The notes under the pieces were generated by a model. The model was given only the letters and a program-made list of their open reading frames with translations, did not search any database and was not told the DNA's origin. Below, in pieces: positions 1,759 through 34,582 of a stretch of 34,582 nt of DNA (position 1 is the stretch's first letter; every line of letters begins with the position of its first letter). The position numbers were made by a program, and so were the translations under genes. Source of the stretch: Candidatus Deferrimicrobiaceae bacterium (GTDB lineage Bacteria; Chloroflexota; Limnocylindria; Limnocylindrales; CSP1-4); NCBI GenBank assembly GCA_035465135.1, contig DATHRO010000085.1:1-34582 (forward strand), given 5' to 3'.

Positions 1759-1782
1759 TGATTACCATATGACAACTAATCA
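1759..1782. promoter_or_regulatory. Inverted repeat TGATTA-N12-TAATCA inside the only clearly AT-rich island of the window; candidate promoter/operator of the HesB-like/MarR gene pair
   Basis: The sequence gattgattaccatatgacaactaatcac lies 30-50 nt upstream of the ATG at 1811. The arms at 1759-1764 and 1777-1782 are exact reverse complements. I could not place a convincing -35/-10 pair. Confidence 0.3.
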
Positions 1783-1810
1783 CACTCGGTCTCCGAAGAA
1801 AGAAGGCGTC

Positions 1811-2104: not shown

Positions 2105-2147
2105 GGATCCGGTAGCGCCCGAACCGACTCTCGGCCGCTGGCCCGGC

Positions 2148-2630: not shown

Positions 2631-2657
2631 CACCCGCTCCCGGCTCGGGCGCGCCGG

Positions 2658-3569: not shown

Positions 3570-3640
3570 GGCGCTTTCCTCCGGCGGTTTGCGCCCGAGT
3601 CTACGGACCGGACTCCCGCTTCGCGAGATCAGAGGCCGCC

Positions 3641-8284: not shown

Positions 8285-9624
8285 CCCTCTGCCGGTGATG
8301 GCGCCGGCAGCGTCTCCGGCGGCGACTCAGCGGCCTCGAAGTCCTCGGCGATCTCCCAGACGGCGAGGATCGGGAAGAGCTTGGTGAAGATCGTGATGAG
8401 GAGCGCGAACAGCGCGAGCCCAGCCGCGAGCATCGACCACTCCACCCACGTCGGGGCGTAGGCGGACGGGTCGTAGGGCATCAACGGCACGCGCAGCCCG
8501 CTGACGACGATCACGTAGCGCTCGATCCACATCGCCACCGTGACGAGGCCGGCGGCCACGATCGCGCCGCGGGCATTGCGGGTCCAGGGCAGGAGCACGG
8601 TCACGATCGGCGCGACCAGACCGCCGAGGAGGTAGAACCAGTACAGCGGGCCGAACTGGTTGAGGAAGAGTTGCCGGAAGTGGAACTCGACCCCCTCCTC
8701 CATCTTGTAGCCGTGCGTCATCAGCTCCGAGATGTTGGCGTAGAGCATGATCGCGGCGAAGGCCGCCATCAGGTAGCCGAGGTACACGAAGTGCGTGTCA
8801 GTCACGTACCTCCCGAGCCTGTAGGCGCGCCGGAGGACGGCCATCACGAGGATCAGGATCGCGATGCCGGAGAAGATCGCGCCGGCCACGAAGAAGGCGC
8901 CGAAGAGCGTGCTGTTCCACGGCACCCGGAGCGTCATCCCGAAGATCCATGAGACGACGGTGTGGACGGACACCGCGATCGGGATGATCAGGATCATCAG
9001 CACGCCGATCGCCCGGGCGAGGGAGCGCTTCTGCCCGTCGCTGCCCACCCAGCCGATGGCCAGGACGCGGTAGAGCCCGCTGCGCCAGCGCGACGACGAG
9101 CCGGCCAGCCGATCCCGGAACAACGCGAGGTCCGGGATCATCGGCACGAACAGATAGGTGATGCTCGCGGTCAGATACGTCGTGATCGCGAGGACGTCCC
9201 AGATGATCGGCGACTGCCAGCGGCCGTAGATCACGACGTTGAGCAGCCGGTCGGGACGGCCCAGATCGATGATCACGTAGGAGGCCCCGCAGACCAGGGC
9301 GACGACCGTGATGAACTCGGCCATCCTGGTCACCGGCGTCCGCCAGCGAGCGTTCGAGACACGCAGGATCGCGGAGATCAACGTTCCGGCGTGGCTGATG
9401 CCGATGAAGAACACGAAGGTGGCGATGTAGAGGCCCCAAGAAATCCGGTCGCGCATGCCGGTCACGACGAGCCCGTCACGGAGCTGGGTGAAGTACGCGT
9501 AGGCGCCCCAGGCGATGATCGCGAGCAGGATCGCGACGACCAGCCAGAAGCGGCGCGACGTCCGGCGAACCGGCGCGACCGCGGTTTCGACGAGGCGTTC
9601 GCGTTCGCGGCTCAGCGCGTCCAC
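8281..9624 (-). CDS. NrfD/PsrC-family polytopic membrane subunit (quinone-interacting)
   Basis: Multi-TM protein with the typical N-terminal FWLVVAILLAIIAWGAYAYFTQLRDGLVVTGMRDRISWGLYIATFVFFIGISHAGTLISAILRV. I chose GTG 9624 because GGAG lies 7 nt upstream. The track start (GTG 9660) has no SD and overlaps the FeS gene by 49 nt; either start is possible. Confidence 0.85.
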   Translation of the reverse strand: MDALSRERERLVETAVAPVRRTSRRFWLVVAILLAIIAWGAYAYFTQLRDGLVVTGMRDRISWGLYIATFVFFIGISHAGTLISAILRVSNARWRTPVTRMAEFITVVALVCGASYVIIDLGRPDRLLNVVIYGRWQSPIIWDVLAITTYLTASITYLFVPMIPDLALFRDRLAGSSSRWRSGLYRVLAIGWVGSDGQKRSLARAIGVLMILIIPIAVSVHTVVSWIFGMTLRVPWNSTLFGAFFVAGAIFSGIAILILVMAVLRRAYRLGRYVTDTHFVYLGYLMAAFAAIMLYANISELMTHGYKMEEGVEFHFRQLFLNQFGPLYWFYLLGGLVAPIVTVLLPWTRNARGAIVAAGLVTVAMWIERYVIVVSGLRVPLMPYDPSAYAPTWVEWSMLAAGLALFALLITIFTKLFPILAVWEIAEDFEAAESPPETLPAPSPAEG

Positions 9625-10559
9625 GGGATCGCTCCGTCGACGTCCACCTGCCACGGCCACTCGGTCGGCAGGCGCCCGGCTGCATAGACGTCTCGACCGA
9701 CGGCCTCGCCATGACCCGCGATGTAGTAGACGCGCGGGTTCGTGCCCAGGTCGCTCTTCAGCTGGTAGGCCTGGTTGTCGGACATGAACCGCGAGGCCGA
9801 AACGACGACCTCGCCGTTCGTCGCCAGATCCTCTTCAAGATCGCCGTACAAGATCGCGCCGTGGGGGCAGCCCTGGACGCAGTACGGCAGCGTCGCCGCT
9901 CGGGCCATGTCAGGGCAGAAGTCGCATTTCATCACCGTCCCCCGCTTCGCCGGGACCTGGTGCTCGGCGGAGTACTCGGCGAGGCCGGCCTCCTCCGGGA
10001 TCGGGGGGTCGCCCCAGTTGAAGAAGCGGCGGTCGTAGGGGCAGGCGGCCATGCAGATTCGGCAACCGATGCAGCGCTCCTGGTCGATCAGCACGGTGCC
10101 CTCCGGCGCGGAGAACGTCGCCCCGACGGGGCAGACGTTGACGCACGGCGGGTTCTGGCACTGCTGGCAGGGCGTCGGGATGAACTGCGTGCCGCCACCG
10201 GGCAGCTCGGACTCGAAGACCTGGATCCACTCCATCGGCTCGGGCGCGAAGTGGCCCTCGATGCAGGCGGCGGTGCATCGAGGCGCGGAGCCGACGCTCT
10301 GGCAACCGTCGCACAGCCGGAGGTCGATGATCATCGTCCACTGGCGGACCCGGCCGTCCGGAGTCAGCGCCGGCTGCTGACCCGGAGGTATCGCCGCTCT
10401 CTCGCTCGTCAGCGATTCCAGAACCCGCGGGAGGACCGGCACGGGCGCCAGGGAGGCGGCACCAAGACCGATGACGCGGAGCATCGTGCGGCGCCCGATC
10501 GTCGGACCGGACTGCGGCGTCGCCTGGGCTGTCGCCTCTTCTGGCCGGAATCGTGGCAT
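9612..10559 (-). CDS. Tat-exported 4x[4Fe-4S] ferredoxin-type subunit (NrfC/PsrB/DmsB/ActB2-like)
   Basis: ATG 10559 follows GAAGG. The twin-arginine signal IGRRTMLRVIGLGAASLA lies at residues ~21-38. Four Cys groups: CDGCQS...C...C, CQQCQNPPC...CP, CIGCRIC..ACP, CDFC...C..CP. Confidence 0.85.
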   Translation of the reverse strand: MPRFRPEEATAQATPQSGPTIGRRTMLRVIGLGAASLAPVPVLPRVLESLTSERAAIPPGQQPALTPDGRVRQWTMIIDLRLCDGCQSVGSAPRCTAACIEGHFAPEPMEWIQVFESELPGGGTQFIPTPCQQCQNPPCVNVCPVGATFSAPEGTVLIDQERCIGCRICMAACPYDRRFFNWGDPPIPEEAGLAEYSAEHQVPAKRGTVMKCDFCPDMARAATLPYCVQGCPHGAILYGDLEEDLATNGEVVVSASRFMSDNQAYQLKSDLGTNPRVYYIAGHGEAVGRDVYAAGRLPTEWPWQVDVDGAIPWTR

Positions 10560-10614
10560 GCGCACCTTCGCTGCGAGCCTTCGCCCGCCCATCGTCGCGG
10601 CGGAGCGTCGGCCT

Positions 10615-10673
10615 ACGCATCCCCCGAGGAGGTCATGCGTCGATCGGACTTCGGCGAAACGCACTAGTGCGTT
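10615..10673. promoter_or_regulatory. Two inverted-repeat operator candidates sharing an ACGCA(Y) half-site in the divergent FeS-operon/DinB promoter region
   Basis: There is a perfect 16-bp palindrome AACGCACTAGTGCGTT at 10658-10673. ACGCAT (10615-10620)-N14-ATGCGT (10635-10640) forms a second inverted repeat. The palindrome is 99 nt upstream of the FeS-gene ATG and 81 nt upstream of the DinB ATG. Confidence 0.5.
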
Positions 10674-10753
10674 CCAGCGATGCCAGTCGGGCCCCCCGGC
10701 GAGGTCCAGAGGGCAGCCTCGAACGACTGTGGCCGCCGCCGCCCGGAGCGGTC

Positions 10754-11314
10754 ATGATGGTGACGATGACCGACTCGATCCGTCCGTTCTACGCCGACTG
10801 GCCGGGCTACAACCGTCGCCTGACCGAGGCGCTGCGCGGCCTGCCCGCCGCGGACCTCGGGCTGCGGGTTCCCGGCTCCGACCACTGGCCGATCTGGGCG
10901 ATCGCCGGCCACTTGGCCGGGACGCGCGTCTACTGGCTGTGCGAGGTCGTCGGCGAGCCGGGCGCGGACGACACGCCGTTCACCGACGTGGCCAACACCG
11001 GTTGGGAGGACGACCTCTCGCACCCGCGTTCGGGCGCCGAGCTGGAGTCAGCGCTCACCTCGACCTGGCGGATCGTCGAGGGCTGCCTCGAGCGCTGGAC
11101 ACCGGAGATGCTCGGCGAAAGCGTCGCTCGCCAGCGGGGCGCGACGCGGCAGGTCCATACGCGCCAGTCGATCCTATTGCGCCTGATCCACCACGAGGCG
11201 TACCACGTAGGCGAGATCAGCCTCGTCCTCGGCGCCCACGGGCGCGAGCCAATCAACCTCTGGCCGCCGGCCGACTGGGCCGCGGATGCACCGCGCGCGC
11301 TGCGCGAGGGTTGA
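10754..11314 (+). CDS. DinB/DinB_2 superfamily (four-helix-bundle metal-binding) protein
   Basis: ATG 10754 follows GGAG. The spacing of WPIWAIAGHLAG and LIHHEAYHVGEI is typical of the His-triad DinB fold. Confidence 0.75.
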   Translation: MMVTMTDSIRPFYADWPGYNRRLTEALRGLPAADLGLRVPGSDHWPIWAIAGHLAGTRVYWLCEVVGEPGADDTPFTDVANTGWEDDLSHPRSGAELESALTSTWRIVEGCLERWTPEMLGESVARQRGATRQVHTRQSILLRLIHHEAYHVGEISLVLGAHGREPINLWPPADWAADAPRALREG

Positions 11315-11323
11315 GGCGAGTCG

Positions 11324-11845
11324 TCAGGCGCGCGATCGATTGTCGGCCCAGGCCCGCCACAGGATGAACAGGCCGACCGCGACGACCGCGACGCCCCAGT
11401 AGTCGAGCACGTCGACGGCCTGGCCGCCGATCAGCAGCGCGGCCCCGACGATCGAGAGGATGCCGCCGGGGATGATCGGCCACCAATGGCTCTCGGCGGC
11501 CTGCATGAGGGCGCCGATGACCCAGATCGCCACGAAGCCGAGACCGAGGCCCAGCACGATCGCCCCGCCTTCGCCCTCGTCACTGCTCCAGGTGATCGCC
11601 TGCGAGACGACGATCCCGGCCCCTAGACCGGTCATGATCCCGCCGGGCACGAGGTAGCCGTACTGGCGCGTATAGACGAATGCGCCCAGGAAGCCCAGGC
11701 CGATGAGCAGCACGATCCAGCCGCCGATGTCGGTCGTCGGCTGCCACACCTGGGTGATCAGGCCGATCACGCCGATGATGATCAGGACGATGGCGAAAAC
11801 GGTGCGGTCGCGTCCCTGCCTCGCGCCGCCGGCAACCTCAGACAT
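11324..11845 (-). CDS. Integral membrane protein of unknown function (about 5-6 TM segments)
   Basis: ATG 11845 is preceded by GGAGGGAG. The protein consists of repeated Gly-rich hydrophobic segments (FAIVLIIIGVIGLI, WIVLLIGLGFLGAFV, GGIMTGLGAGIVV, IVLGLGLGFVAIWVIGAL, GGILSIVGAALLIGG, VAVVAVGLFILW). Confidence 0.55.
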   Translation of the reverse strand: MSEVAGGARQGRDRTVFAIVLIIIGVIGLITQVWQPTTDIGGWIVLLIGLGFLGAFVYTRQYGYLVPGGIMTGLGAGIVVSQAITWSSDEGEGGAIVLGLGLGFVAIWVIGALMQAAESHWWPIIPGGILSIVGAALLIGGQAVDVLDYWGVAVVAVGLFILWRAWADNRSRA

Positions 11846-12011
11846 GCGCACTCCCTCCGAGCCCAGCATCCCGGCGGCCCGTCGGGCCGCCTCGAGCACG
11901 GATGCCGCCAGTCTCTGATTCCGCACGCAGGCGAGCCCCGGCCGAAAGGGCCCTCCGGCACCCGCCAACGGGGCCGGTCGGCCTCAACGGACCACGCGGC
12001 CTCGGCCGCCC

Positions 12012-16965: not shown

Positions 16966-18216
16966 ATGTCGCAGCGCCATCGATCCGGCCTGCCCTTCGC
17001 GATGGCCGTCGTCCTCGCGCTCGCGGCACTGCCGTTCCTCGCCAGCCGGCCCGCCGCGGCGGCGGGGACCGACCATGTCACGAACTGCCGGATCAACCTC
17101 CGAGGCGGACCCTCGACCTCGACCGCGCTCGTCGCCACGCTGCCGAAGGACAGCGTGGTGTCGGTCTCCGCAACCGTGAGCGGCGGAGCCTGGACGACGC
17201 ACTGCGGCACGAGCGTCGCGGGGGCGACGTGGTTCAAGGTCGTCGCGATCGACGGCCGCAGCGTCGCGTCGCGCTACGGGACCAGCATCCTCTACGCGGC
17301 CACGGGCCTGTTCCACCCAGCCCCAGCGCCGACGCCGGATTACCGGTCGAACTGTGGCGTCAACCTTCGGGCCACGGCCTCGACCGGCGCATGGATCAGG
17401 GGCGTCGTGGCCAGGAATGCCGTCGTGACCGCGGCGGCGACCGTCAGCGGCGGGCGCTGGCGAGCCGACTGCGGCAGGAGCGTCAGCGGCAGTCGCTGGC
17501 TCAAGATCGTCGCGATCAATGGCCGCAGCGTGCATTCGCTGTACGGCGTGAGCGCCGTCTACGCCGCACGGGGTCTCTTCACGTCCATCCCGCTGACCGG
17601 CTACCTCGAGGGGATCGACGTCTCCAACTGGCAGGGCCGGATCGACTGGGCCCGGGTCAGGGCCGCCGGCGTGCGCTTCGCAATCGCCAAGGCGAGTGAG
17701 GGGGTCGGCTACGAGGACCGGAGCTACGACCGTAACCGGGCCGGCGCGCTGGCCCAGGGCATCGCGTTCGGGGCGTACCACTTCGCCCGGCCGGAGAACA
17801 ACCCGATCAAGGAGGCCGACTGGTTCATCGAGGTCGCGAGCTACCGGCGCGGCATGATCATCCCGACGCTCGATCTCGAGCGAACCGGGGGCCGGAACCC
17901 GACGGGCCTGGCGAACTGGACGAAGGCCTGGCTGACGCGGGTCCACGAGCGGCTTGGCGTGCGGGCCATGATCTACGTCAGCCCGTCGTTCTGGCGCCAG
18001 AATCTTGTCAACACCGAGTGGTTCGCCCGGCACGGCTACCACGTCGTCTGGATCGCCCACTGGCGCGCCACGAACCCGAAGGTGCCGGCCTCGAGCTGGA
18101 ACGGCCGGTCGTGGACCTTCTGGCAGTACTCGACCACCGGCAGCGTGCCGGGCATCTCCGGCCCCGTCGATCTGAACCGCTACCGCTACGCCGGGCTCGC
18201 CGCCGTTCTCTACTGA
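16966..18216 (+). CDS. GH25 muramidase (lysozyme) with two N-terminal SH3b-like repeats
   Basis: Signal peptide with AAA cleavage site. The catalytic domain shows GIDVSNWQG.IDW..V...GV.FAIAKASEG..Y.D, AYHFARP and WTFWQYS..G.VPGI.G.VDLN. Confidence 0.8.
   Translation: MSQRHRSGLPFAMAVVLALAALPFLASRPAAAAGTDHVTNCRINLRGGPSTSTALVATLPKDSVVSVSATVSGGAWTTHCGTSVAGATWFKVVAIDGRSVASRYGTSILYAATGLFHPAPAPTPDYRSNCGVNLRATASTGAWIRGVVARNAVVTAAATVSGGRWRADCGRSVSGSRWLKIVAINGRSVHSLYGVSAVYAARGLFTSIPLTGYLEGIDVSNWQGRIDWARVRAAGVRFAIAKASEGVGYEDRSYDRNRAGALAQGIAFGAYHFARPENNPIKEADWFIEVASYRRGMIIPTLDLERTGGRNPTGLANWTKAWLTRVHERLGVRAMIYVSPSFWRQNLVNTEWFARHGYHVVWIAHWRATNPKVPASSWNGRSWTFWQYSTTGSVPGISGPVDLNRYRYAGLAAVLY
17083..17580 (+). 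repeat. Intragenic tandem duplication: two 77-aa modules (each with two Cys) in the GH25 N-terminus
   Basis: By hand alignment, NCRINLRGGPSTS...GGAWTTHCGTSVAGATWFKVVAIDGRSV...YAATGLF and NCGVNLRATASTG...GGRWRADCGRSVSGSRWLKIVAINGRSV...YAARGLF are identical at about half of the aligned positions. Confidence 0.6.
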
Positions 18217-18243
18217 GTCGCCCGTCGCGGCTACGATGCGCCG

Positions 18244-18957
18244 ATGACGGGCGGCACCGCTCGCTTGATGGCCATCGTGCCGGCCCACGACGAGGCGCCG
18301 CGGATCGGCCCTGTGGTCGCCGGAGCGGCCCGCTACCTACCGGTCCTCGTCGTCGACGACGGCTCGACGGATGCCACGCCCGAGGTCGCCGCGGCGTCCG
18401 GAGCCAGGGTCCTCGAGCAGCGCCCGAACCGCGGTAAGGGGGCCGCGCTGCGGGCCGGATTCAGTGAGGCTCTGCGGTCCGGGGCCGAGGCGGTCGTGAC
18501 GCTGGACGGCGACGGACAGCATGATCCGGCCGAGATCCCGGCGTTCCTCGCGGCCCATGCCGATCGCACCGCCGCCGGCCTGCCGAGCGCGCTGATCATC
18601 GGCCGGCGCGACTTCGCCCGGATGCCGATCGCCCGCCGCATCGCCAACACCCTCGGCACGATCGTCCTGTCGCTGGCCCTCGGTCGCCACATCCCGGACA
18701 ACCAGTCGGGCTATCGGCTCGTCGGCCGGAAGCTGATGGCCGCGACCCTCGACAGCGCCGAGGCCGGCTTCGCGTTCGAGGTCGAGATGATCGCGATCTG
18801 CCTCCGCGAGCGTTGGCCGATCGCCTGGGTCCCGATCCGCACGATCTACGCCGACGAACGCAGCCACATGCGGCCGTTTGCCCACCTGCGCGAGTTCCTG
18901 GCGATTGCCCGCCGGGCGCGCCGGATCGCTCGCTCGCCGAGGACGGAATCCCGCTAG
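18244..18957 (+). CDS. Family 2 glycosyltransferase (polyprenol-phosphate glycosyltransferase-like, soluble domain only)
   Basis: Motifs seen: AIVPAHDEA, VVDDGSTD, NRGKGAAL, LDGDGQHDP and NQSGYR. Confidence 0.8.
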   Translation: MTGGTARLMAIVPAHDEAPRIGPVVAGAARYLPVLVVDDGSTDATPEVAAASGARVLEQRPNRGKGAALRAGFSEALRSGAEAVVTLDGDGQHDPAEIPAFLAAHADRTAAGLPSALIIGRRDFARMPIARRIANTLGTIVLSLALGRHIPDNQSGYRLVGRKLMAATLDSAEAGFAFEVEMIAICLRERWPIAWVPIRTIYADERSHMRPFAHLREFLAIARRARRIARSPRTESR

Positions 18958-21380
18958 CGCAGGACCTCGAAGGCGTCCACATCGACCCGCGGCCGGCCCG
19001 CGGTCCCGACCACGACGATCTTGATCGTGTGATAGCCGACCGACGACCACGTCTTCGAGAACGCGACGTAGCGGGTCGTCCGCGTCGGCGCGTACAGGTC
19101 GATCGTCGCGGCGAGGGAACCGTCGACGTAGACCTTGACCGCGCCGCGGTTGGGTCCGCGGGTCGTGACGAACGCGAGGCTTCGCGCCCTGGTCGTCAGC
19201 TTGGCCTTCGCGCCCGCGACCTTCGCGAATCGCACGGATCCGCCGGAGTAGGCGCTCGAGGACCCGGTCCGCCAGGTGCCGCGGTAGACGATCGCGGCCT
19301 TGGTCTGCTGGAACAGCTTCGGGCGGAGCGTCGGGCCGGCCTTCCAGGGCCCCACGTTGCCGGCCTTGTCGCGGGCCCGGACCTCGAAGCGATAGGTGTG
19401 GCCCGGCTTCAGCGAGGCTTTCCGGGCCGCGCTGCTCAGGCCCGTGGCGATGATCTTGAACGCGCCGCCGTCCCTGCTGCGAGCGACCTCGAAACTGGCG
19501 ATGCCTGCCGGCCCGACGTCGCTTCCAGTCCACGACAGCCGGACGGCGACCTTCGTCCCGATCTGGAGGTTGGAGCGGAGCGCCGCGACGGGCGCGGTCG
19601 TCGTCGGCTTGCTCGCGTCGAGGACCATCGACACGGTGTTCGACGCCGAGACCGGGTTGCCGGCCAGGTCGGTGACCGCGCCGGCCGGGATCCGGAAGGT
19701 CAGCGTCCCGTCGGTCCAGCTGTCGTTGGTGACGCTGAAACCGTAGGCTGCGCCGCTGCCGAAGATCAGCGGTACCTCCCACGGGCTCGCCGCGTGGGAC
19801 GTTCCGCCGATGACGACGTCCGAGGGTTCGAAGCCGAGCACCGGTTCGCTGTAGACGGCCGTCACGTCGATGTACCCCAAGCCGGCGTCGTTGACGTAGG
19901 TCTTGTGGGGTGTCTGCCACAGCGACACGGTCGGCGCGTCGTCGTCGAAGGCGTACGACGTCGTGGCCGTCGCCGGCCCGACGGGGCCGGCCAGCCCGGC
20001 CAGGTCGCTGGTCGTCTCGGCACCGAGCGTCAGCTCGACGGTTCCGTCGGCCGGATCGGCGGCCGAGAGCGTGACGGTATACGAGGCCGCGCTCCCGGTG
20101 ACGGCGTCGACGGACCAGCCGCCCGACGACCCGCCAACCTCGAAGTCGGACGGCTCGAGGCCCGTCACCGGCTCGCTGAAGATCAGCCCGAACGGGATCG
20201 TGTGGCTGCCCGTTGGATCGGGGACGAGCGGCACCAGCGACGCCACGGCCGGCGGCGTGGCGTCGTTGTCCGGGCCCGTCGTGGCGGCGATCCGGTTGGC
20301 GACGTTCTGGCGCAGCGTTGGGAACGTCGGGAAGAACGTGTCGCCCGGGCAGGCCGTGGCGCTGACCTGACGGTGGCCCGAGATGTTCGGGATGGTCTTC
20401 GTGTTGCCGAGCACGGGGTTGACGTAGGTCGACGAGCCGAGCGGGTCGAGCCCGTGGCGCTCGAGCTTCCAGGCCAGCATCGCCTCGAGCGACGACCGAG
20501 CGGCCGCCGTCGGCAGGCGGTTGGTGAAGGTCCCGAGGAGGACGATGCCGACGGTTCCGTCGTTGAAGTTCGTGGCATGAGCGCCGCGGACGACGTTGCT
20601 GGCCAGGTCCTCCCCGGTCGGCTCCTCGCCGCCGGCATAGGGGCGCGAGTAGCGGCCCTCGTAGATCCGGCCCGATTCGTCGATCAGGAAGTTGTAGCCC
20701 ATGTCGCCGAAGTCGCGGGTGACCGCGTAGAGGTGATAGATCGCGCGCACTGTGGCCGCGGGATTAGGGTCGTCGTTCCGGCCGGCGGTGTGATGGACGA
20801 TTGCCTTCTGCATCGGCGCGAAGCTCGGCGGCCAGATCTCGTTGCCGCCCGAGTCGAAGCGCTTCGACTCGTCGGCGCCCCACTCGGCGCGGGAGATGAC
20901 GTCGGGCTGGCTCGTTGCCGCACTGGCCACGCCGGTCTGCCCGTCGGCGAGCCCGCGGTCGGCCCGGGCATCGATCCCGATGACCGTCAGTCGGCCGATC
21001 GGCCGATCGGTCGTGATCCGCACGAACCATGCCCCGCCGGTCCACAGGACGGCGCCCCAGGTCTCGTCGCCGACGTCGTCCGAGGCCTCGGCGTGGCCGA
21101 CCGGCACCTCCTCGCCGAACTCGTTCGGCCGCTCGGCGAAGGCGACCGTGATCTCGGCGTCATGCGCCCGGGACCATCGCACGCTCACGTGCGAGGCGTT
21201 GAACGGCAACGGCACGATCCGGCGGTGCGTGACCGAGGTCGTGACCTCGTGGCTGACGACCTTGATCGGCTTCGGCGCTGCCAGCGTGCCGATCGCCGGC
21301 ACCAGCGCGGTCAGCAGCGACGCGAGCACCAGGCTCGTCCCGAGGTTCGTCGTCAGAGAGCGGCGGCGAGCGGGGCGCAT
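18954..21380 (-). CDS. Large secreted N-acetylmuramoyl-L-alanine amidase (Amidase_2/PGRP domain) with tandem Ig-like domains, an FN3-like domain and a C-terminal beta-sandwich domain
   Basis: Amidase_2 stretches: ISRAEWGADES, AIVHHTAG, GYNFLIDESGRIYEGR, GAHATNFNDGTVGIVLLG and GHRQVSATACPG. A SEPV.G.EPSDF/V motif is repeated, and there is an FN3-like SWTGSD...HTYRFEVRARDKAGN. I took ATG 21380 (signal peptide MRPARRRSLTTNLGTSLVLASLL) as the start; ATG 21416 is also possible. Confidence 0.8.
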   Translation of the reverse strand: MRPARRRSLTTNLGTSLVLASLLTALVPAIGTLAAPKPIKVVSHEVTTSVTHRRIVPLPFNASHVSVRWSRAHDAEITVAFAERPNEFGEEVPVGHAEASDDVGDETWGAVLWTGGAWFVRITTDRPIGRLTVIGIDARADRGLADGQTGVASAATSQPDVISRAEWGADESKRFDSGGNEIWPPSFAPMQKAIVHHTAGRNDDPNPAATVRAIYHLYAVTRDFGDMGYNFLIDESGRIYEGRYSRPYAGGEEPTGEDLASNVVRGAHATNFNDGTVGIVLLGTFTNRLPTAAARSSLEAMLAWKLERHGLDPLGSSTYVNPVLGNTKTIPNISGHRQVSATACPGDTFFPTFPTLRQNVANRIAATTGPDNDATPPAVASLVPLVPDPTGSHTIPFGLIFSEPVTGLEPSDFEVGGSSGGWSVDAVTGSAASYTVTLSAADPADGTVELTLGAETTSDLAGLAGPVGPATATTSYAFDDDAPTVSLWQTPHKTYVNDAGLGYIDVTAVYSEPVLGFEPSDVVIGGTSHAASPWEVPLIFGSGAAYGFSVTNDSWTDGTLTFRIPAGAVTDLAGNPVSASNTVSMVLDASKPTTTAPVAALRSNLQIGTKVAVRLSWTGSDVGPAGIASFEVARSRDGGAFKIIATGLSSAARKASLKPGHTYRFEVRARDKAGNVGPWKAGPTLRPKLFQQTKAAIVYRGTWRTGSSSAYSGGSVRFAKVAGAKAKLTTRARSLAFVTTRGPNRGAVKVYVDGSLAATIDLYAPTRTTRYVAFSKTWSSVGYHTIKIVVVGTAGRPRVDVDAFEVLR

Positions 21381-21427
21381 GGTCGCGGGCTGGACCTCGA
21401 GCTGGGCTGGCCGCATCCCCCGGCGGC

Positions 21428-21466
21428 GCGGACACCACCCTAGGCCACGGCCGTCCGCGGACACCA
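21428..21466. repeat. 10-bp direct repeat GCGGACACCA x2 (29 nt start-to-start) just upstream of the amidase gene
   Basis: Copies at 21428-21437 and 21457-21466 are exact. On the amidase (minus) strand they read TGGTGTCCGC, 48-86 nt upstream of ATG 21380. If ATG 21416 is the true start, the copies lie 12-50 nt upstream instead. Confidence 0.25.
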
Positions 21467-21519
21467 TAGCGAAGCGGGCCTAGCGCGACCCGGGACTTCT
21501 GCGCCCAGGTGCGCCGCGC

Positions 21520-28516: not shown

Positions 28517-30271
28517 TTGGACGATCAGTCGGATCTCCGCGACCTGCGCCGCCTGAAGCGGATCGGCATCATCGCGCCGATCGTGTTCCTCGCGGCCTTC
28601 GAGCTGTGCCGCGTCGCCCTGATCGACACCTCGTTCGAGGCGCCGCACTCGAACCTGATCGCGGCCGGCCTGGGGGTGACGGCGGCGCTCGCATTCGGGC
28701 TCGCCGTCTTCGTGTACCTCGAGCGGGCGCAGCAGAGCGTGATCCGGCGCAACCGGGACCTTGCCTACGTCGACGGCGTCGCGAGCGCGATCCAGGGCGA
28801 CATCGACGTCGACGGCGTCGTGCGCCACGCGCTCGAGGCGATCGTTCGCTTGACCGGTGCCAGCGAGGCCCGGGCGACGATTCAGCCGCTCGACGCCGAC
28901 GCCGGCCCGGCCCACGAGGTCGTGGTGGCCGACCCGGCTGGCGGCGGTGACGCGCTGGCCGTCCCGGATCACCTCGTTGACCTGCCACTTTCGACCAGCG
29001 CCGCACCGATCGGCTGCGTCAGCATCCGGATCCCGTCATCGAAGATTGCGACCCTGCCGAGCTCGGAGGCGCTGTCGACGGCCGCCCACCAGATGGCGGC
29101 CGCGGTCCAGATCGCCCTGCTCGTGAGCGACATGCAGCGCCGCAAGACCGAAGGCCACACGCTCTACCAGGTGCTCCTGCAGATCTCGAACCACGTCCCC
29201 GTGACCGAGACGCTGGGTGCGATCGTCGCGGGTGCTCGCGAGCGCCTGGACGCGGACGAGGGGCGCCTGTGCCTGACGCCGACGACGCTGGCGGCGTTCG
29301 ACGCCGACGCCGAGCTCTCCGCGGAACTCGAGGACGGCCTCAGCTGTGGCGCCCCGGTCGAGGGCGAGCGGCCACCGCCGAACGCGCCCGCCCGCCACCA
29401 TCGCTGCCCGATCGGAGACGAGTCAGGCTATGGGGCGACGCTCAAGGCCGCGATCTGGGCGCCCGGCGAGCTGCTCGGCGAGCTGTGGATCGCGAGGGCG
29501 CGGGAGGAGCCGTTCTCGGAGCGCGACCGCCGCTATCTCGTCACGCTCGCCGGGATCGCCGCGATCGCGATCAGCGGCGCTCGTCTCCGGGAGCGGGATC
29601 GGCAGTCCGCGATCCTCGCCGAGCGCGACCGGATTGCCCGCGAGCTGCACGACAGCCTGGCCCAGGTCCTGGGCAGCACCCACCTCCGGCTGCGGACCCT
29701 CCTGGCTCGGCCGGAGGTCGCCGAGCGTGGACGCATCAGCGGCGAGCTGGAGGACCTCGCGACCGTCAACGAGGAGGCCTACCACGACGTCCGTGAGGCG
29801 ATCCTCGGGCTTCGCGAAGCCAGCCGAACGCAGGGCCTCATCGAGGCGCTGGGCGCCTACGTCGACAAGTACGCCCAGCAGTCCGGGTTGCCCGTCGAGC
29901 TCGAATCGACGATCGACGGCGAACCGGCCCTCTCGGCGGCCAGCGAGATCCAGGTCATCCGGGTCATCCAGGAAGCACTGACCAACGTCCGCAAGCACGC
30001 CCGGGCGACGAAGGCGTGCGTCCGGATCGCGTCGGCCGAGCCGGGCACGATGACGATCGTCGTCGAGGACGACGGTCGCGGCTTCGACCCGTCAGCGGCA
30101 CCGAGCCACCGTGACGGCGGCTACGGTCTCCAGACGATGCGCGAGCGCATGCAGCTCGCCGGCGGCAGCCTCCGGATCGACTCTCGGCCGGGCCAGGGGA
30201 CGCGGGTCATCGCGGTCGTCCCCGACGGCTCGCGGCCGCGCGGCAACCGCCTCGTGGCAGCACCGAACTGA
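28517..30271 (+). CDS. Sensor histidine kinase: 2 TM, GAF-like region(s), HisKA_3, HATPase_c
   Basis: TTG start follows GAGAAGGGA. TM segments IGIIAPIVFLAAFELCRVALI and LIAAGLGVTAALAFGLAVFVYL are separated by a ~10-aa loop. H-box RIARELHDSLAQVL. ATPase motifs NVRKHA, DDGRGF and GYGLQTMRERMQLAGG. Confidence 0.8.
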   Translation: MDDQSDLRDLRRLKRIGIIAPIVFLAAFELCRVALIDTSFEAPHSNLIAAGLGVTAALAFGLAVFVYLERAQQSVIRRNRDLAYVDGVASAIQGDIDVDGVVRHALEAIVRLTGASEARATIQPLDADAGPAHEVVVADPAGGGDALAVPDHLVDLPLSTSAAPIGCVSIRIPSSKIATLPSSEALSTAAHQMAAAVQIALLVSDMQRRKTEGHTLYQVLLQISNHVPVTETLGAIVAGARERLDADEGRLCLTPTTLAAFDADAELSAELEDGLSCGAPVEGERPPPNAPARHHRCPIGDESGYGATLKAAIWAPGELLGELWIARAREEPFSERDRRYLVTLAGIAAIAISGARLRERDRQSAILAERDRIARELHDSLAQVLGSTHLRLRTLLARPEVAERGRISGELEDLATVNEEAYHDVREAILGLREASRTQGLIEALGAYVDKYAQQSGLPVELESTIDGEPALSAASEIQVIRVIQEALTNVRKHARATKACVRIASAEPGTMTIVVEDDGRGFDPSAAPSHRDGGYGLQTMRERMQLAGGSLRIDSRPGQGTRVIAVVPDGSRPRGNRLVAAPN

Positions 30272-30272
30272 G

Positions 30273-30965
30273 ATGCACGAGACCGCCCAGCCCGAGATCC
30301 GGATCCTGCTGGTCGACGACCAGCCGCTGTTCCGGCGGGCGATCGCGACCCTCGTCGGCGACCAGCCGGGCCTCGTCGTCGTCGGCGAGGCCGACAACGG
30401 CGTGCAGGGCCTCGAGATGGCCCGTGCCCTGAAGCCTGACGTCGTGCTGCTCGATGTCGAGATGCCGGTCATGAACGGGGTCGAGGCGACGCGCCGGATC
30501 CGCGACGAGGTCCCGGCTGCGAAGATCGTGATCCTGACCGTGTCGGAGGCAGACGACCATCTGTTCGACGCGATCCGCTTCGGCGCCCATGGCTATCTGC
30601 TGAAGAACCTCCGGCCCGAGCAGCTGTACGAGTTGATCCGGGCCGTGATGCGCGACGAGACCGTCCTCTCGCCGGCGATCGCTGGCCGGCTGTTGCGCGA
30701 GTTCCGGGAGCATCCCGAGGGCCGTCGCGTGTCCACCCCGAGCGCACCGGAGCCGAGCCTCACCGCGCGCGAGATCCAGATCATGCAGCTCGTCGCCGAC
30801 GGTCTCAGCAACAAGGAGATTGGCGTTCGCCTCTCGATCACGGAAGGCACGGTCAAGAACCACGTCCACAACGCCCTCGAGAAGCTGCAGCTCGAGAACC
30901 GCATCCAGGCGGCGGCGTACGTGGTTCGGCACGGCCTCGGACTGCGCGTCGGAACAGAAGGCTGA
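30273..30965 (+). CDS. NarL/LuxR-family response regulator (REC + HTH_LuxR)
   Basis: The ATG lies 1 nt after the kinase stop. Motifs seen: IRILLVDDQPLFRRAI, PDVVLLDVEMPVMNG, KIVILTVSE and LTAREIQIMQLVADGLSNKEIGVRLSITEGTVKNHVHNALEKL. Confidence 0.9.
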   Translation: MHETAQPEIRILLVDDQPLFRRAIATLVGDQPGLVVVGEADNGVQGLEMARALKPDVVLLDVEMPVMNGVEATRRIRDEVPAAKIVILTVSEADDHLFDAIRFGAHGYLLKNLRPEQLYELIRAVMRDETVLSPAIAGRLLREFREHPEGRRVSTPSAPEPSLTAREIQIMQLVADGLSNKEIGVRLSITEGTVKNHVHNALEKLQLENRIQAAAYVVRHGLGLRVGTEG

Positions 30966-31023
30966 GCCCGGCCGACGCGCGGCCCTCATGGCGGGTCGAT
31001 CCCCCGTCCGGTACAGCATTCCG

Positions 31024-31078
31024 CCGCCTGCCTGTGCCCTCCAGCGGATTTACGCGAGATCGGCAGGCGGCTAGTTTT
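31024..31078 (+). terminator. Candidate terminator or structured spacer after the response-regulator gene
   Basis: CCGCCTGCC (31024-31032) pairs perfectly with GGCAGGCGG (31062-31070), followed by CTAGTTTTC. The 29-nt loop is large for an intrinsic terminator. Confidence 0.3.
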
Positions 31079-31108
31079 CGCTGCGACGTCCACCACTGGA
31101 GGCGGTCG

Positions 31109-31513
31109 GTGCCAGGCGATTCCCAACGGGTCGTGATCCTGTACGCCCATCCGCTGCTGGGCGAGGGGCTCGCGCGGATGCTCGGCGAGGACCCTCGCCT
31201 CGTCGTGACGGCTGTCCACGTCGAGGACCTCGAGTCCGCCAAGGCGGTGCTCCGCGACGCACCCGACGTCGTGGTGGTGGAACGGGCCGCTTCGATGCAC
31301 GCCATCGACCTCCTGGCGCTCGCCCCGTCCGCGCTGCTCATCGACGTCGGGCTGGACGCCGGACCGAGCTGGGCGTACCACCGCGACGAGATCTCCCCGC
31401 AGCCGGACGAGATCCTGCACACCATCCGGCGCTGCACGGCCGCGGGGAACCCGTCGGTCGTCCGTCGCCGCCGGCCGGGTCAACCCCACCGAACTGCCCC
31501 GGCGCCTTCCTGA
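31109..31513 (+). CDS. Stand-alone degenerate receiver-like (pseudo-REC) protein
   Basis: GTG 31109 lies 7 nt after GGAGG. VVILYAHPLLGEGLARMLGEDPRLVVTAV....ESAKAVLRDAPDVVVVERAA mirrors the REC layout of the neighbouring regulator (ILLVDDQPLFRRAI...PDVVLLDVEMP). The acidic pair is YA and the phospho-acceptor position is Glu. GC3 is high, and there is no output domain. Confidence 0.45.
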   Translation: MPGDSQRVVILYAHPLLGEGLARMLGEDPRLVVTAVHVEDLESAKAVLRDAPDVVVVERAASMHAIDLLALAPSALLIDVGLDAGPSWAYHRDEISPQPDEILHTIRRCTAAGNPSVVRRRRPGQPHRTAPAPS

Positions 31514-31584
31514 CCGCACCAGCGGCGGCCGATTCCTTATCCGAGCGATAGAGGAGCGCGTCCATCGGCGCGTCGCGCTCGCTG

Positions 31585-31602
31585 TACCCGTTTTCTACCC
31601 CC
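31585..31602 (+). promoter_or_regulatory. Two direct TACCC-type heptamers one helical turn apart (TACCCGT-N4-TACCCCC); candidate NarL-family binding site
   Basis: The motifs start at 31585 and 31596 (11 nt start-to-start), about 135-148 nt upstream of the TPR gene ATG. Each differs at one position from the E. coli NarL heptamer consensus TACYYMT. Confidence 0.3.
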
Positions 31603-31651
31603 CGGCGGATGGGAAGTCCGCGCCGCACCCGTCACGATCAACGGTGGACGG

Positions 31652-31693
31652 CTCCGCCCCGGGGCTCTCTTCCCTTCTCGCCCCGGGACGGGG
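31652..31693 (+). promoter_or_regulatory. Leader hairpin whose pyrimidine loop carries an anti-SD sequence complementary to the TPR-gene ribosome-binding site
   Basis: The core stem is CCCGGGGC (31658-31665) paired with GCCCCGGG (31680-31687). It is extendable to 31652/31693 with one mismatch. The loop is UCUCUUCCCUUCUC. CCUUCUCG (31673-31680) is the exact complement of CGAGAAGG (31719-31726), which is the SD of the ATG at 31733. Confidence 0.4.
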
Positions 31694-31732
31694 TCCGCCC
31701 ACGCAACTCGAACCAGCACGAGAAGGAAACGT

Positions 31733-32692
31733 ATGAAGACCCTCGACGTCGTCCGGCGGACGTCAGACGAAGACCTGTCGCGATGGATCAGGCGGCTGTC
31801 GCTGATCCTCGTCCTCGGCGTGCTCGCCTTCGGGGTGTTTTACGCGGTCGACCGCTGGCGGCCGGCCGCGCCGGCGATCGTGGATCAGCAGATCGCATCC
31901 CTCGAGCAGGCGGTTCGCGACAACCCCAACGACATCTCCATCCGCGGCAGCCTGGCGGATGCCTACGCCGCCAAGGGCCGCTTCGAGGACGCGCTCGGCC
32001 AGTACGACGTGATCATCGCCGCGGGCGTCAGCCTGGAGCCGGCCAACCTCGGCCGGGCCCGCGCGCTGCAGGCCCTCGGGCGACTCGACGAGGCCGCCGC
32101 GGCGTTCGAGGCGGTCGTCGCGATCGCCAAGGACGGCGAGATGGCTCATGTCGACATGGGCCTCCAGGCCGCCTACTACGGCCTCGGCTTCATCGCCAGA
32201 GAGCAGGGTCGCCCGGCCGACGCGATCGGCCATCTCGAGCGGGCCCTCGCGATCAGCCGCTCCGACGCCGACTCGCTGTACCTGATCGGCACCGCGTTCG
32301 TGGCGACGGGCGAGTACGAGAAGGCCATCACCGTCCTCCGTGCGTCGGTGACGTTCGTGCCGGTCGGCTGGGACGAGCCGTATGCGGCGCTGGCCGAGGC
32401 CTACGAGGCCAGCGGCCAGCCGGCGATGGTCGCCTGGGCGAACGCGATGGCCGGGCTGATGGCCGGGGACGCCGAGGCCGCCGAGCCGGCCCTGCTCGAG
32501 CTCGTCGACGGCGAGGCCGCGCTCGACGCGGCGATCGGCCTGGGCCTGCTGTTCGAGACGCGCGGCGACAACGCGCAGGCGGCCGAGTGGTACCAGCGCG
32601 CGCTGGCGATCGAGCCGACCAGCAACGCGGCGGGCCTGGGGCTGGGCCGGGTCGGGCCAATCCCGACGACCGGCGTGGAGAGCGGGTCGTGA
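31733..32692 (+). CDS. Membrane-anchored TPR-repeat protein
   Basis: The ATG follows GAGAAGGAAACGT. N-terminal TM segment LSLILVLGVLAFGVFYAV. Several TPR-like units follow (LADAYAAKGRFEDALGQYDVII, ARALQALGRLDEAAAAFEAVV, LGFIAREQGRPADAIGHLERAL, GTAFVATGEYEKAITVLRASV, LLFETRGDNAQAAEWYQRALAIEP). Confidence 0.75.
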   Translation: MKTLDVVRRTSDEDLSRWIRRLSLILVLGVLAFGVFYAVDRWRPAAPAIVDQQIASLEQAVRDNPNDISIRGSLADAYAAKGRFEDALGQYDVIIAAGVSLEPANLGRARALQALGRLDEAAAAFEAVVAIAKDGEMAHVDMGLQAAYYGLGFIAREQGRPADAIGHLERALAISRSDADSLYLIGTAFVATGEYEKAITVLRASVTFVPVGWDEPYAALAEAYEASGQPAMVAWANAMAGLMAGDAEAAEPALLELVDGEAALDAAIGLGLLFETRGDNAQAAEWYQRALAIEPTSNAAGLGLGRVGPIPTTGVESGS

Positions 32693-33741
32693 CCGGCCTG
32701 GCGGCGAGCCCCGAGCAGGGCGTCAACCCCGGCGTCGGGGACCAGGGCGAGGACCTCGGGCCCACGCGTGAGGAGCGCGAGCGGCGACGACGCTGGCTGC
32801 TCCTGCTCCTGCTGTTCGTCTTCCTGCTGATCCTCATCGGCCTTGCGATCTGGTACTTCCTGTTCCGCCAGCCGATCCCGCTGCCACCGCCGATCCAGAT
32901 CGACCTTCCGGGCTATACGACGAGCTTCTACGGCGCCAACAACCCGGTCGGCATCGCTGTCAGCCCGGACGGCAGCCGGGTTTACGTCGCCCAGACAGAA
33001 GGCGACCGCGGCGTCCTCGTGTTCGACGGCGCGGGCAACGTCATCTCCGTTGCGGTCCCGCCGGCCTCGACCGGCGCCGACCACGTGCCGGTCTGGCTCG
33101 CGATCGACCCGATCTCGTCAGAGCTGTACGTGTCCGACCGGCCGATGGGCACAATCTACGTCTACGACCGCGACGGGCAGTTCGCCCGGGAGGTCGTTCT
33201 TGCAAGCGATCTCCCCGGCTGGCAGCCGATGGGTCTGGCGTTCGATGCCGCGGGCAACCTCTACGTCAGCGACTTCGGCGGTGCCGCGCCGCGGGTCGAG
33301 ATGTTCGACCGGACGCTGGCGCTCGTCCGGACGTTCGGCGAGGGCGACCGCCTGGCATTCCCGAATGGCGTCGCCGTGGACGAGCTGGGCAACGTCTTCG
33401 TCGCCGACAGCAACAACGGCCGCCTGCTGGTGTACGGCCCGGACGGGACGCGGCTGGCCGAGGTCGGCCGCGGCACCGGCAAGGGCGAGCTGGCGCTCCC
33501 GCGCGGGCTCGCCGTGGATGGTCGGAGCCGGATCTACATCGGCGACTCGACCGGCCAGGGCGTCCTCGTGTACCGCCTCACCGAGGGTGCCAGCCCAGCC
33601 CTCGAATACCTCGGCTTCTTCGGCGGTGAGGGCATCGCCGACGGCCGCTTCAGCTTCCCCAACGGCGTGGCGGCCGACGGCCGCGGCCGGATCTACGTCA
33701 GCGACACCAACAACGATCGCGTTCAGATGTGGAGCTATTGA
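32689..33741 (+). CDS. Membrane-anchored NHL-repeat beta-propeller protein
   Basis: The GTG start overlaps the TPR stop (GTGA at 32689-32692). TM segment WLLLLLLFVFLLILIGLAIWYFLF. NHL-type blades repeat: PVGIAVSPDGSRVYVA, LAIDPISSELYVSD, PMGLAFDAAGNLYVSD, PNGVAVDELGNVFVADSNNGRLLVY, PRGLAVDGRSRIYIGD and PNGVAADGRGRIYVSDTNNDRVQMW. Confidence 0.8.
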   Translation: MTGLAASPEQGVNPGVGDQGEDLGPTREERERRRRWLLLLLLFVFLLILIGLAIWYFLFRQPIPLPPPIQIDLPGYTTSFYGANNPVGIAVSPDGSRVYVAQTEGDRGVLVFDGAGNVISVAVPPASTGADHVPVWLAIDPISSELYVSDRPMGTIYVYDRDGQFAREVVLASDLPGWQPMGLAFDAAGNLYVSDFGGAAPRVEMFDRTLALVRTFGEGDRLAFPNGVAVDELGNVFVADSNNGRLLVYGPDGTRLAEVGRGTGKGELALPRGLAVDGRSRIYIGDSTGQGVLVYRLTEGASPALEYLGFFGGEGIADGRFSFPNGVAADGRGRIYVSDTNNDRVQMWSY

Positions 33742-33842
33742 TGGAAAGCGTCCCAGAGGAGGTGCAGCCGAGTGACGTGCTTGCCGCCGGACAGGCGGCT
33801 CCAACCGCCAACCCCTATCGCAACAGACAGGAGGTGGGAACA

Positions 33843-34582
33843 GTGAGACGACTGGCCCTGCTGTTCGCAGGGGCCACACTCTGGCTGTTCCTCGCCGCGT
33901 TCCCTGTGTTTGCGGATGGTGGGGTCCACGTGGCCGGCAACAACTCGGGGCTCAGCACCCTGACGGCCGACAGCTGCGCGGGCTGCCACCGTGCCCACAC
34001 GGCACAGGGCGAGTACCTGATCAACTCAACCTCGACCGAGGGCCTGTGCCTGACGTGCCACGGCGCGTCGAGCGTCGGCTCCGCAGTCGACGTCAAGACC
34101 GGTATCCAGTACGAGGTCGGGACAACCGACCCGCGAGGCGACGTCATCCTCGGCGCGCTGCGCGGCGGCGGCTTCGACCAGGCCAGGATCGACGCCGGGG
34201 TCGTGACCCGGCTGTCCTACCTGCGCAACGCCACTGCCGTCTCGCAGCGGCCTCGCGTAGGTGTAGGCGCCGCCGAGGACGTCAACTCGGCGCACATCGC
34301 GATGACAGAGAACGGCCTCACCAACCCGGGCGTCGCCTGGGGCAACGGGGCCGTCGGGACCGGGGCCGGCCCATCCGTGACGGTGACGTGCACCTCGTGC
34401 CACAACCCGCACGGCAATGGTCAGTATCGGATCCTGAAGCCGTTCCCTGAGGACCACGACGCGGTCATCGACAACGCCTGGGTCGTCAACATCATCGCCG
34501 CGGACGCGACGAGCGATCGGATCTACACCGACGTTTCGCACGGCCTTCTTGACGGTGACGTCGTCGACATCACGGGCCCGGG
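33843..34582 (+). CDS. Secreted multihaem c-type cytochrome (CxxCHxxH paired-CXXCH style), 3' end outside window; not in the supplied ORF track
   Basis: My own translation of this frame from 33843 is MRRLALLFAGATLWLFLAAFPVFADGGVHVAGNN...SCAGCHRAHT...GLCLTCHGAS...VTCTSCHNPHGNGQYRILKPF... There is no stop up to nt 34582. GTG 33843 is preceded by AGGAGGTGGGAACA. Haem motifs lie at 33975-33989, 34047-34061 and 34389-34403. The frame is also open back to ATG 33741, which overlaps the NHL stop. Confidence 0.8.
   Translation, partial: MRRLALLFAGATLWLFLAAFPVFADGGVHVAGNNSGLSTLTADSCAGCHRAHTAQGEYLINSTSTEGLCLTCHGASSVGSAVDVKTGIQYEVGTTDPRGDVILGALRGGGFDQARIDAGVVTRLSYLRNATAVSQRPRVGVGAAEDVNSAHIAMTENGLTNPGVAWGNGAVGTGAGPSVTVTCTSCHNPHGNGQYRILKPFPEDHDAVIDNAWVVNIIAADATSDRIYTDVSHGLLDGDVVDITGP

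Follow-up and report, generated by a model that had tools for sequence, protein, structure and literature searches.

A partial gene for a secreted hexahaem cytochrome within a gene cluster conserved among Limnocylindria-type Chloroflexota

The stretch of DNA analysed here, which we call the window, comprises 34,582 nucleotides of contig DATHRO010000085.1 (assembly GCA_035465135.1, Candidatus Deferrimicrobiaceae bacterium, placed by its GTDB lineage in the Limnocylindria of the Chloroflexota), and the element under study is an open frame on the plus strand that runs off its 3' end. We show that this frame is the beginning of a real gene for a secreted hexahaem cytochrome and that the gene is a member of a cluster conserved in Limnocylindria-type Chloroflexota; the role of the product is most likely that of a haem relay in electron transfer across the cell envelope. 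In its whole form, the best explanation of the data would be a Sec-exported, all bis-His hexahaem protein of ~510 residues, the first cytochrome of its cluster and part of an electron relay in the envelope, and we hold this to be probable, with reservations that are set out below.

The open frame, its start and its coding character

The frame 33741-34582 contains no stop codon in its translation for 280 codons, up to the end of the window, as the initial annotation of this DNA had stated. In a window of ~71% G+C, open frames alone say little, and the composition at the three codon positions was therefore examined. From 33843 to 34582, the G+C fractions at codon positions 1, 2 and 3 are 0.66, 0.52 and 0.87, the same pattern as that of the verified genes of the window, compared with a third-position value (GC3) of only 0.68 in the 102 nucleotides ahead of the GTG (33741-33842). 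A Shine–Dalgarno-like AGGAGG lies on the plus strand at 33829..33834, with a spacing of 8 nucleotides to the GTG at 33843, and the homologues have an equivalent M/V-RR start, so that both the ribosome-binding site and the relatives agree with the start originally proposed. The ATG at 33741, which overlaps the stop codon of the preceding NHL gene as TGATG, was also considered and was ruled out, as the GC3 of 0.68, the starts of the homologues and the Shine–Dalgarno sequence all favour 33843.

Three open reading frames (ORFs) on the minus strand overlap this region. They have GC3 values of 0.67, 0.83 and 0.64, in two of them it is position 1 that has the highest G+C (0.87 and 0.90), and a homologue-supported reading was found for none of the three; their earlier description as shadows is borne out. 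The absence of the cytochrome ORF from the ORF track, which had also been pointed out, is explained by the listing itself, which omits ORFs running off an end.

Within the 246 codons that follow the GTG, there are three CxxCH motifs, against 0.007 expected by chance. The chance rate was taken from the six-frame translation of the whole window, in which only two other CxxCH occur in 69,160 codons; both are single chance motifs in shadow frames, and no other cytochrome c gene was found in the window.

Long spurious ORFs are common at 71% G+C, the composite 710-residue ORF just upstream being an example, and the frame might by the same token be non-functional, either a frame that is open by chance in DNA of high G+C content or a pseudogene that misassembly has cut. 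We regard this as hardly conceivable, and for practical purposes it is refuted: the translation is strongly homologous to a full-length protein (E = 2e-80), its haem motifs are invariant, its GC3 pattern is that of coding DNA, its synteny is conserved, and its alignment with the orthologue from locus L006 is free of frameshifts through the last codon.

The encoded protein and its family

The product from GTG 33843 begins MRRLALLFAGATLWLFLAAFPVFA, followed by the mature N-terminus DGGVH, and an invariant histidine (residue 29) stands next to that terminus. The hydrophobic segment is common to the window protein and its L006 orthologue, the first 36 residues of the two being identical, and both the signal peptide and an ADGG(P/V)H motif are kept across the family. 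The signal peptide and the three motifs CAGCHRAH, CLTCH and CTSCHNPH (Table 1) read in the translation exactly as first described. Conservation of the motifs had been named in advance as a point on which the call might fail, and it held, all three being invariant in 59 full-length homologues. With an export signal and conserved CxxCH motifs, the predicted protein has what a c-type multihaem cytochrome calls for; covalent loading of its haems is predicted, and relatives carry a System II haem-attachment set in the cluster, beyond the point at which the window ends.

The initial annotation had also recognised a paired (doubled) CXXCH signature, and the curated models concur. The CxxCHxxH...CxxCH module at residues 41-75 passes the cut-offs of both PF09699 (Paired_CXXCH_1; 43.9 bits for the fragment, against a gathering score of 20.6) and TIGR01905 (40.7 bits, against 25.2), and full-length relatives reach 57-70 bits. 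These models name a haem-binding module only and are silent on partner or function. All other cytochrome models (c3, c7, DmsE/MtrA, NrfH and others) scored the fragment below their cut-offs: PF14537 (cytochrome c3) gave 20.3 against 25, PF14522 (c7) 23.3 against 24.8, and TIGR03508 (decahaem DmsE/MtrA) 34.5 bits against 192.2, with 42-46 bits for full-length relatives. We read the sub-threshold matches to the decahaem, c7 and c3 models as local motif matches. Since the c3 and c7 models remain below their gathering scores, the public name ‘cytochrome c3 family protein’, which is borne by the few named homologues, from Chloroflexota or Candidatus Limnocylindrales, is generic.

A homologue search returned 1129 proteins at 90% clustering, the best at the E-value given above; among the matches listed, identities range from 49 to 72%, and nearly all of the proteins are 390-430 residues long. 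An exhaustive profile search of 1.84 billion representatives gave 1777 clusters (50% clustering) at E <= 1e-3, 391 of them at E <= 1e-30, and many of these members, of 500-870 residues, match in 2-4 stretches, which indicates insertions. A phmmer search against the PDB gave motif-level matches only. The relatives come from uncultured Chloroflexota, in the form of Limnocylindria-type metagenome-assembled genomes (MAGs), and not from classical metal reducers, to whose large multihaem cytochromes the signature had been linked.

Exactly six CxxCH motifs are present in each of the full-length homologues (59/59), which mostly contain 12 cysteines in total, and six further histidines are conserved across them. 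In our family alignment (A2, 60 full-length rows), the conserved residues follow the order H, CxxCHxxH, CxxCH, repeated three times. This pattern looks like that of an all bis-His hexahaem protein, and the full-length relatives look like three paired-CXXCH modules in series. The closest relative, the L006 protein from the MAG ‘Chloroflexi bacterium isolate MnB_4 Mn-Chloroflexi-1’, is 79% identical to the window protein over 245 residues, without a frameshift; it has 514 residues in full, six CxxCH motifs and an insert of ~75 residues after haem 3. The window breaks off 740 nucleotides into the gene, inside this same lineage-specific insert, and, from the length of the L006 protein and the shared insert, a hexahaem protein of ~510 residues is to be expected of the window copy as well. 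The assignment to the multihaem cytochromes of the paired family thus stands, but not the suggestion of a ‘large’ one, as full-length relatives hold their six haems in ~390-520 residues.

The insert itself (34440-34582 in the window; residues ~205-285 of the protein at L006 5508-7052) has no Pfam match. Many long family members match in several stretches, and the loop after haem 3 thus looks like a preferred place for domain insertions.

A cluster conserved in Limnocylindria-type Chloroflexota

The neighbourhood of the gene was determined from the called genes, with Pfam assignments, of four homologue-bearing contigs, and from 58 loci of a species-level genome collection, to which the genes of a single reference locus were compared by tblastn. 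The same gene order recurs in ~50 Chloroflexota MAG loci. It begins with a kinase, a NarL-type regulator, a small protein, in many cases a small Rieske protein, a TPR protein, an NHL protein and the hexahaem cytochrome; it continues, often with a paralogous hexahaem cytochrome, to a multihaem cytochrome of 630-930 residues and a second TPR protein, which is CcmH/NrfG-like and in some cases has a cupredoxin fused to it; and it ends with CcdA, ResB, ResC, a thioredoxin and, last, a multihaem protein of the NapC/NirT type (~570 residues). Pfam confirmed the domain assignments of the downstream genes. Haem motifs number 6, 6 and 7+1 in the three L006 cytochromes. In the last of these, an N-terminal transmembrane helix leads into a linker rich in Pro, Thr and Glu.

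The window contains the regulatory and accessory front end of this arrangement, namely the five upstream genes in the same order, without the Rieske gene, and the start of the hexahaem gene. The comparison of loci gives a cluster of ~17 kb, conserved in Limnocylindria-type Chloroflexota, of which the window cytochrome is the first cytochrome gene. Beyond the end of the window, synteny predicts a paralogous hexahaem cytochrome, an anchored cytochrome of 7-8 haems on a Pro/Thr-rich linker, a CcmH/NrfG-like TPR protein, a dedicated System II haem-attachment set (CcdA, ResB, ResC and thioredoxin) and a NapC/NirT quinol dehydrogenase. The type of gene is already known, as a paired-CXXCH multihaem cytochrome in a cluster of the extracellular electron-transfer type, and hundreds of relatives carry generic public names; in the literature searched, we found nothing on the conserved Limnocylindria cluster and nothing specific that links Limnocylindria to multihaem cytochromes or to extracellular electron transfer. 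The cluster whose start the gene marks is shared by dozens of Limnocylindria-type genomes.

Several variations on this arrangement were seen. In most relatives, a small Rieske [2Fe-2S] gene (148-170 residues) lies between the gene for the small conserved protein and the TPR gene; it is lacking in the window (30965-31733) and in the nearest relatives, L006, L007 and L022, and the subclade without it is the subclade with the cytochrome insert. On L001, the contig of the closest database homologue, genes for a Rieske protein, a cytochrome b and a 485-residue multihaem cytochrome (894-3920) lie directly upstream of the kinase gene, which suggests that a bc-type complex with a multihaem subunit adjoins the cluster in some genomes. 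The family profile also aligned with the C-terminal part of a 632-residue cytochrome from L002 (319 columns, 96.7% probability), and the large anchored cytochrome may thus contain a module like the hexahaem proteins, joined to an anchor and linker at its N-terminal side.

Proposed role in electron transfer across the envelope

The electron path that we infer from the cluster, and its direction, can be outlined as follows. The NapC/NirT protein would trade electrons with the quinone pool; the soluble hexahaem cytochromes would pass them, via closely packed haems, outside the cytoplasmic membrane; and the larger, anchored cytochrome would conduct them across the wall, either towards a partner outside the cell or from it. 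The TPR and NHL proteins may dock or assemble the cytochromes, and the domains of these two type-II-anchored accessory proteins are probably extracytoplasmic. The cluster lies behind two-component regulators of its own, and its genes may be co-transcribed.

In other lineages, a mixture of genes of this kind is recognised as the mark of clusters for extracellular electron transfer. In the extracellular electron-transfer clusters of Dethiobacter, genes for NHL, TPR and CymA-like proteins are found with multihaem cytochromes (PMC10376724); the Uet cluster of Tenderiales contains multihaem cytochromes, a cupredoxin, two NHL proteins, CcsA/B and a TPR-NrfG protein (10.1101/2022.05.06.490989); and, in Desulfovibrio ferrophilus, NHL propellers are thought to stabilise cytochrome complexes (PMC5815863). 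The Chloroflexota cluster resembles those of Dethiobacter alkaliphilus, ‘Ca. Tenderia’ (Uet) and D. ferrophilus (for outer-membrane cytochromes) in joining several multihaem cytochromes to NHL and TPR/NrfG-like proteins and a CymA/NapC-like quinol oxidase, and a cupredoxin is shared with Uet, which has CcsA/CcsB. It differs from them in that orthology of the cytochromes is not demonstrated and in that the genes of the conserved Chloroflexota block come in their own fixed order; a beta-barrel porin was not seen among them, and Limnocylindria are not represented in the published clusters.

A number of points weigh against the envelope relay as we have drawn it. Only the first three haem sites lie inside the window, the others resting on relatives that are at most 79% identical. 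No experimental study of any family member was found in the literature, so that function is deduced from context alone. The organisms are MAGs, and the NarL-type regulator reveals nothing about the signal. Finally, the Rieske protein (of most relatives, not of the window) and the cupredoxin fusion would fit electron uptake or metal oxidation too.

This last point leads to a different proposal, in which the cluster oxidises a donor outside the cell, for instance Fe(II) or Mn(II), or a cathodic mineral, and electrons run inward, via the Rieske protein and the cupredoxin as high-potential carriers, to the respiratory chain. The presence of the small Rieske gene in most relatives and of the cupredoxin fused to the second TPR protein in some is consistent with this, as are the Rieske/cytochrome b/multihaem set that adjoins the cluster on L001 and the Uet cluster, which is architecturally similar and has been implicated in electron uptake; in addition, the MAG of the closest relative bears the name ‘Mn-Chloroflexi-1’ (isolate MnB_4). 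A name of this kind, however, is not physiological evidence, and the lack of the Rieske gene in the window, L006, L007 and L022 argues that it is not essential to the module. Multihaem relays are, moreover, reversible, and the direction is not readable from sequence. On balance, we consider electron uptake in place of export fairly unlikely.

The cytochrome might also be an ordinary carrier outside the membrane that lacks an extracellular partner and takes part in respiration of a soluble substrate, for instance nitrite or another N- or S-oxyanion. Such pathways typically have quinol dehydrogenases of the NapC/NirT type and NarL/NarQ-like regulators, and there is a weak, sub-threshold similarity to models of the NrfH/NrfB type. 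However, the HisKA_3/NarL architecture is generic, and the conserved block contains no catalytic reductase (NrfA, Nir, Nap or a molybdoenzyme) in any locus examined, which makes a soluble acceptor less likely; it contains instead three multihaem cytochromes in succession, of which one is carried by a long Pro/Thr linker. We therefore judge this alternative very unlikely, and prefer the relay across the envelope. If such envelope electron exchange does take place, a widespread soil and freshwater lineage, which is usually regarded as one of aerobic heterotrophs, would join in iron, manganese or humic redox cycling.

Comparison with OmcS: sequence and pattern

When the family profile was searched against all PDB sequences, the top match was the Geobacter nanowire cytochrome OmcS (6ef8; E = 0.005, in three co-linear stretches). 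In hhalign, with an OmcS query identical to 6ef8_A over residues 1-407, family and OmcS aligned with 97.6% probability (E = 4e-12) and a score of 90, compared with 31.5 ± 5.5 (maximum 49.5) for 100 shuffles of OmcS in which the CxxCH motifs were fixed in place. The C-terminal two thirds of the family, from which the N-terminal paired-CXXCH region had been removed, still scored 64 (shuffles, 26 ± 4). Against a profile of the OmcS family (alignment A3, 53 rows), the match reached 99% and E ~1e-18 over 152-156 columns covering haems 1-3, part of this signal being the generic paired-CXXCH module. For the OmcS homologues, a full-length query was used in place of a 120-residue fragment, which had returned seven fragments only.

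At low stringency, all six motifs align in order with those of OmcS, and the alignment with OmcT at default stringency extends over 217 columns and haems 1-4. The resemblance is specific to the hexahaem proteins of the cluster, the two of which score 94-96 with the OmcS profile, against 36-55 for the larger cytochromes and the NapC/NirT protein. The HMMER profile of the OmcS family, in contrast, scores the Chloroflexota proteins at only 0-32 bits.

The order of conserved Cys and His residues is identical in A2 and A3, the window itself displaying the first half of it. Like OmcS, OmcT and OscC, the family has six haems in a mature protein of ~400 residues, a Sec signal, a conserved His close to the start of the mature chain, and haem sites 1, 3 and 5 of the CxxCHxxH form. 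The invariant His52, in the CxxCHxxH of haem 1, is the equivalent of OmcS His16, which in 6EF8 serves as ligand to a haem in the neighbouring subunit. The loci are also alike, since at the Geobacter omcS locus, too, tandem hexahaem paralogues stand beside a beta-propeller gene and lie downstream of two-component genes; we found nothing in the literature searched on a resemblance of the cluster's tandem hexahaem proteins to OmcS. From these comparisons, shared ancestry of the haem core with OmcS-type hexahaem cytochromes appears likely, with the present family as a remote relative. The resemblance, remote but specific, offers a concrete candidate family in which to ask whether Chloroflexota have cytochrome wires.

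Comparison with OmcS: fold, companions and possible nanowires

An AlphaFold2 model of a full-length family member had a predicted local distance difference test score (pLDDT) of 74 and a predicted template-modelling score (pTM) of 0.76. Foldseek found nothing in the PDB better than E = 2 for this model, the models being without haem and the proteins rich in coil. In the control, a model of OmcS made by the same procedure retrieved 6ef8_A at E = 3e-67, with template-modelling (TM) scores of 0.86/0.91, and the null result for the family therefore counts against a close match of fold. There are also differences from OmcS in the protein itself: in the family, the segment that separates haems 2 and 3 is beta-rich, haems 4 and 6 are much more closely spaced, and the C-terminal tail is rich in Pro. 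The hosts differ (Chloroflexota for the family, Desulfobacterota for OmcS), and so do the companions, which are NHL, TPR, System II and NapC/NirT proteins here and OscB and OscD-H in Geobacter. According to the summaries of Shen et al. (2025) in PMC12977616 and PMC13194489, the OscD propeller belongs to the osc companion operon. An orthologous relationship between OscD and the NHL protein of the cluster was considered and is unsupported, OscD being of the YVTN type and the BLASTP match having E = 0.011; neither an OscH prolyl isomerase (PPIase) nor OscEFG-like genes were seen in the cluster.

These results bear on a more specific proposal, namely that the protein is a nanowire subunit of the OmcS type, polymerising head-to-tail into a conductive filament in which the conserved His of the haem 1 CxxCHxxH would serve the adjoining subunit as a haem ligand, and that the TPR and NHL proteins are the assembly apparatus. 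The proposal draws on the top rank of 6ef8 in the PDB search, hhalign scores far above those of the shuffles, the 99% match between the two family profiles, the alignment of six motifs with OmcS and of four haems with OmcT, the identical Cys/His pattern with its His16 equivalent, the much lower scores of the other cytochromes of the cluster, and the tandem paralogues beside a propeller gene. The pattern may, however, merely reflect three paired-CXXCH modules, CHNPHG being common in MtrA too, and invariance of His52 does not itself show polymerisation. The low HMMER scores, the propeller of the NHL rather than the YVTN type, the lack of PPIase and OscEFG-like genes and a model without a PDB match where the OmcS control succeeds all speak against it; furthermore, among the Geobacter paralogues wire formation is known for OmcS alone (PMC12977616). 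On balance, we think that a subunit of this kind is quite unlikely, nanowire formation being possible but unsupported.

The same applies to the wider form of the idea, in which Limnocylindria-type Chloroflexota would make OmcS-like wires from their tandem hexahaem proteins, assembled at the cytoplasmic membrane, on its outer face, by the anchored TPR and NHL proteins and served by a dedicated System II; this too we find quite unlikely. The Limnocylindria-type Chloroflexota are abundant, uncultured bacteria of soil and fresh water, on the Terrabacteria side of the tree, and such wires, if real, would be an independent and previously undescribed cytochrome-nanowire system outside the Desulfobacterota and the archaea.

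Upstream genes and other features of the window

The genes that lead up to the cytochrome are listed, with the other features, in Table 1. The product of 31034-31513 (a 159-residue ORF) has no significant Pfam match; a counterpart is present in most loci, always between the response regulator and the Rieske/TPR genes. This ORF was considered as the missing Rieske gene and ruled out, as it matches the small hypothetical protein of the cluster. The TPR gene has a GC3 of 0.94 and is syntenic in the relatives. The NHL gene has a GTG start that overlaps the TPR stop as GTGA; it encodes one N-terminal transmembrane helix followed by the propeller, and it lies directly upstream of the cytochrome gene in ~50 loci.

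The 710-residue ORF 31609-33741 was ruled out as a single gene. It is composite, and only 32689-33741 is the NHL gene: the first half has the wrong codon-position pattern and is an Arg/Gly/Pro-rich shadow that overlaps the TPR gene in another frame. For annotation, the ORF should be split into the TPR gene and the NHL gene, and the cytochrome gene should be recorded as a 5'-partial hexahaem cytochrome.

Table 1. Coordinates of the cytochrome gene, its parts and other features of the window, with the basis of each assignment.
Feature	Position	Strand	Basis
Partial coding sequence, hexahaem c-type cytochrome, first 246 codons	33843..34582	+	Open frame, GC3, PF09699/TIGR01905, homologues
Sec-type signal peptide (MRR, hydrophobic core, cleavage between VFA and DG)	33843..33914	+	Read from sequence, family conservation
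Haem site 1, CAGCHRAH (residues 45-52; C45, C48, H49, conserved H52)	33975..33998	+	Invariant
Haem site 2, CLTCH (residues 69-73; C69, C72, H73)	34047..34061	+	Invariant
Haem site 3, CTSCHNPH (residues 183-190; C183, C186, H187, conserved H190)	34389..34412	+	Invariant
GAF-HisKA_3 sensor histidine kinase, first gene of the conserved cluster	28517..30271	+	Pfam, synteny
NarL/GerE-type response regulator (Response_reg + GerE); true start probably near 30267	30111..30965	+	Pfam, synteny
Small conserved cluster protein, exact start uncertain	31034..31513	+	35% identity to 154-residue L001 counterpart
Membrane-anchored TPR protein, 319 residues, transmembrane segment at residues 18-42	31733..32692	+	TPR families, E down to 4e-23
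Membrane-anchored NHL-repeat beta-propeller, 350 residues	32689..33741	+	NHL PF01436, E = 4e-25
GH25 lysozyme with SH3 domain	16966-18216	+	
Family 2 glycosyltransferase	18244-18957		
Amidase_2 protein of 837 residues with Ig-like and fibronectin III domains	18954-21467	-	

Elsewhere in the window, a second pair consisting of a HAMP-HisKA_3 kinase and a NarL-type regulator is encoded on the minus strand at 3641-6173, positionally unrelated to the cytochrome cluster. Also on the minus strand, at 7688-11968, genes for an NrfD-like membrane protein (8281-9660) and an NrfC-like 4Fe-4S protein (9612-10664) are flanked by genes for two proteins without a family match; no catalytic subunit or cytochrome is visible beside this pair, which may be a redox module that interacts with quinones. 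Genes for cell-wall enzymes adjoin one another at 16966-21467 (Table 1).

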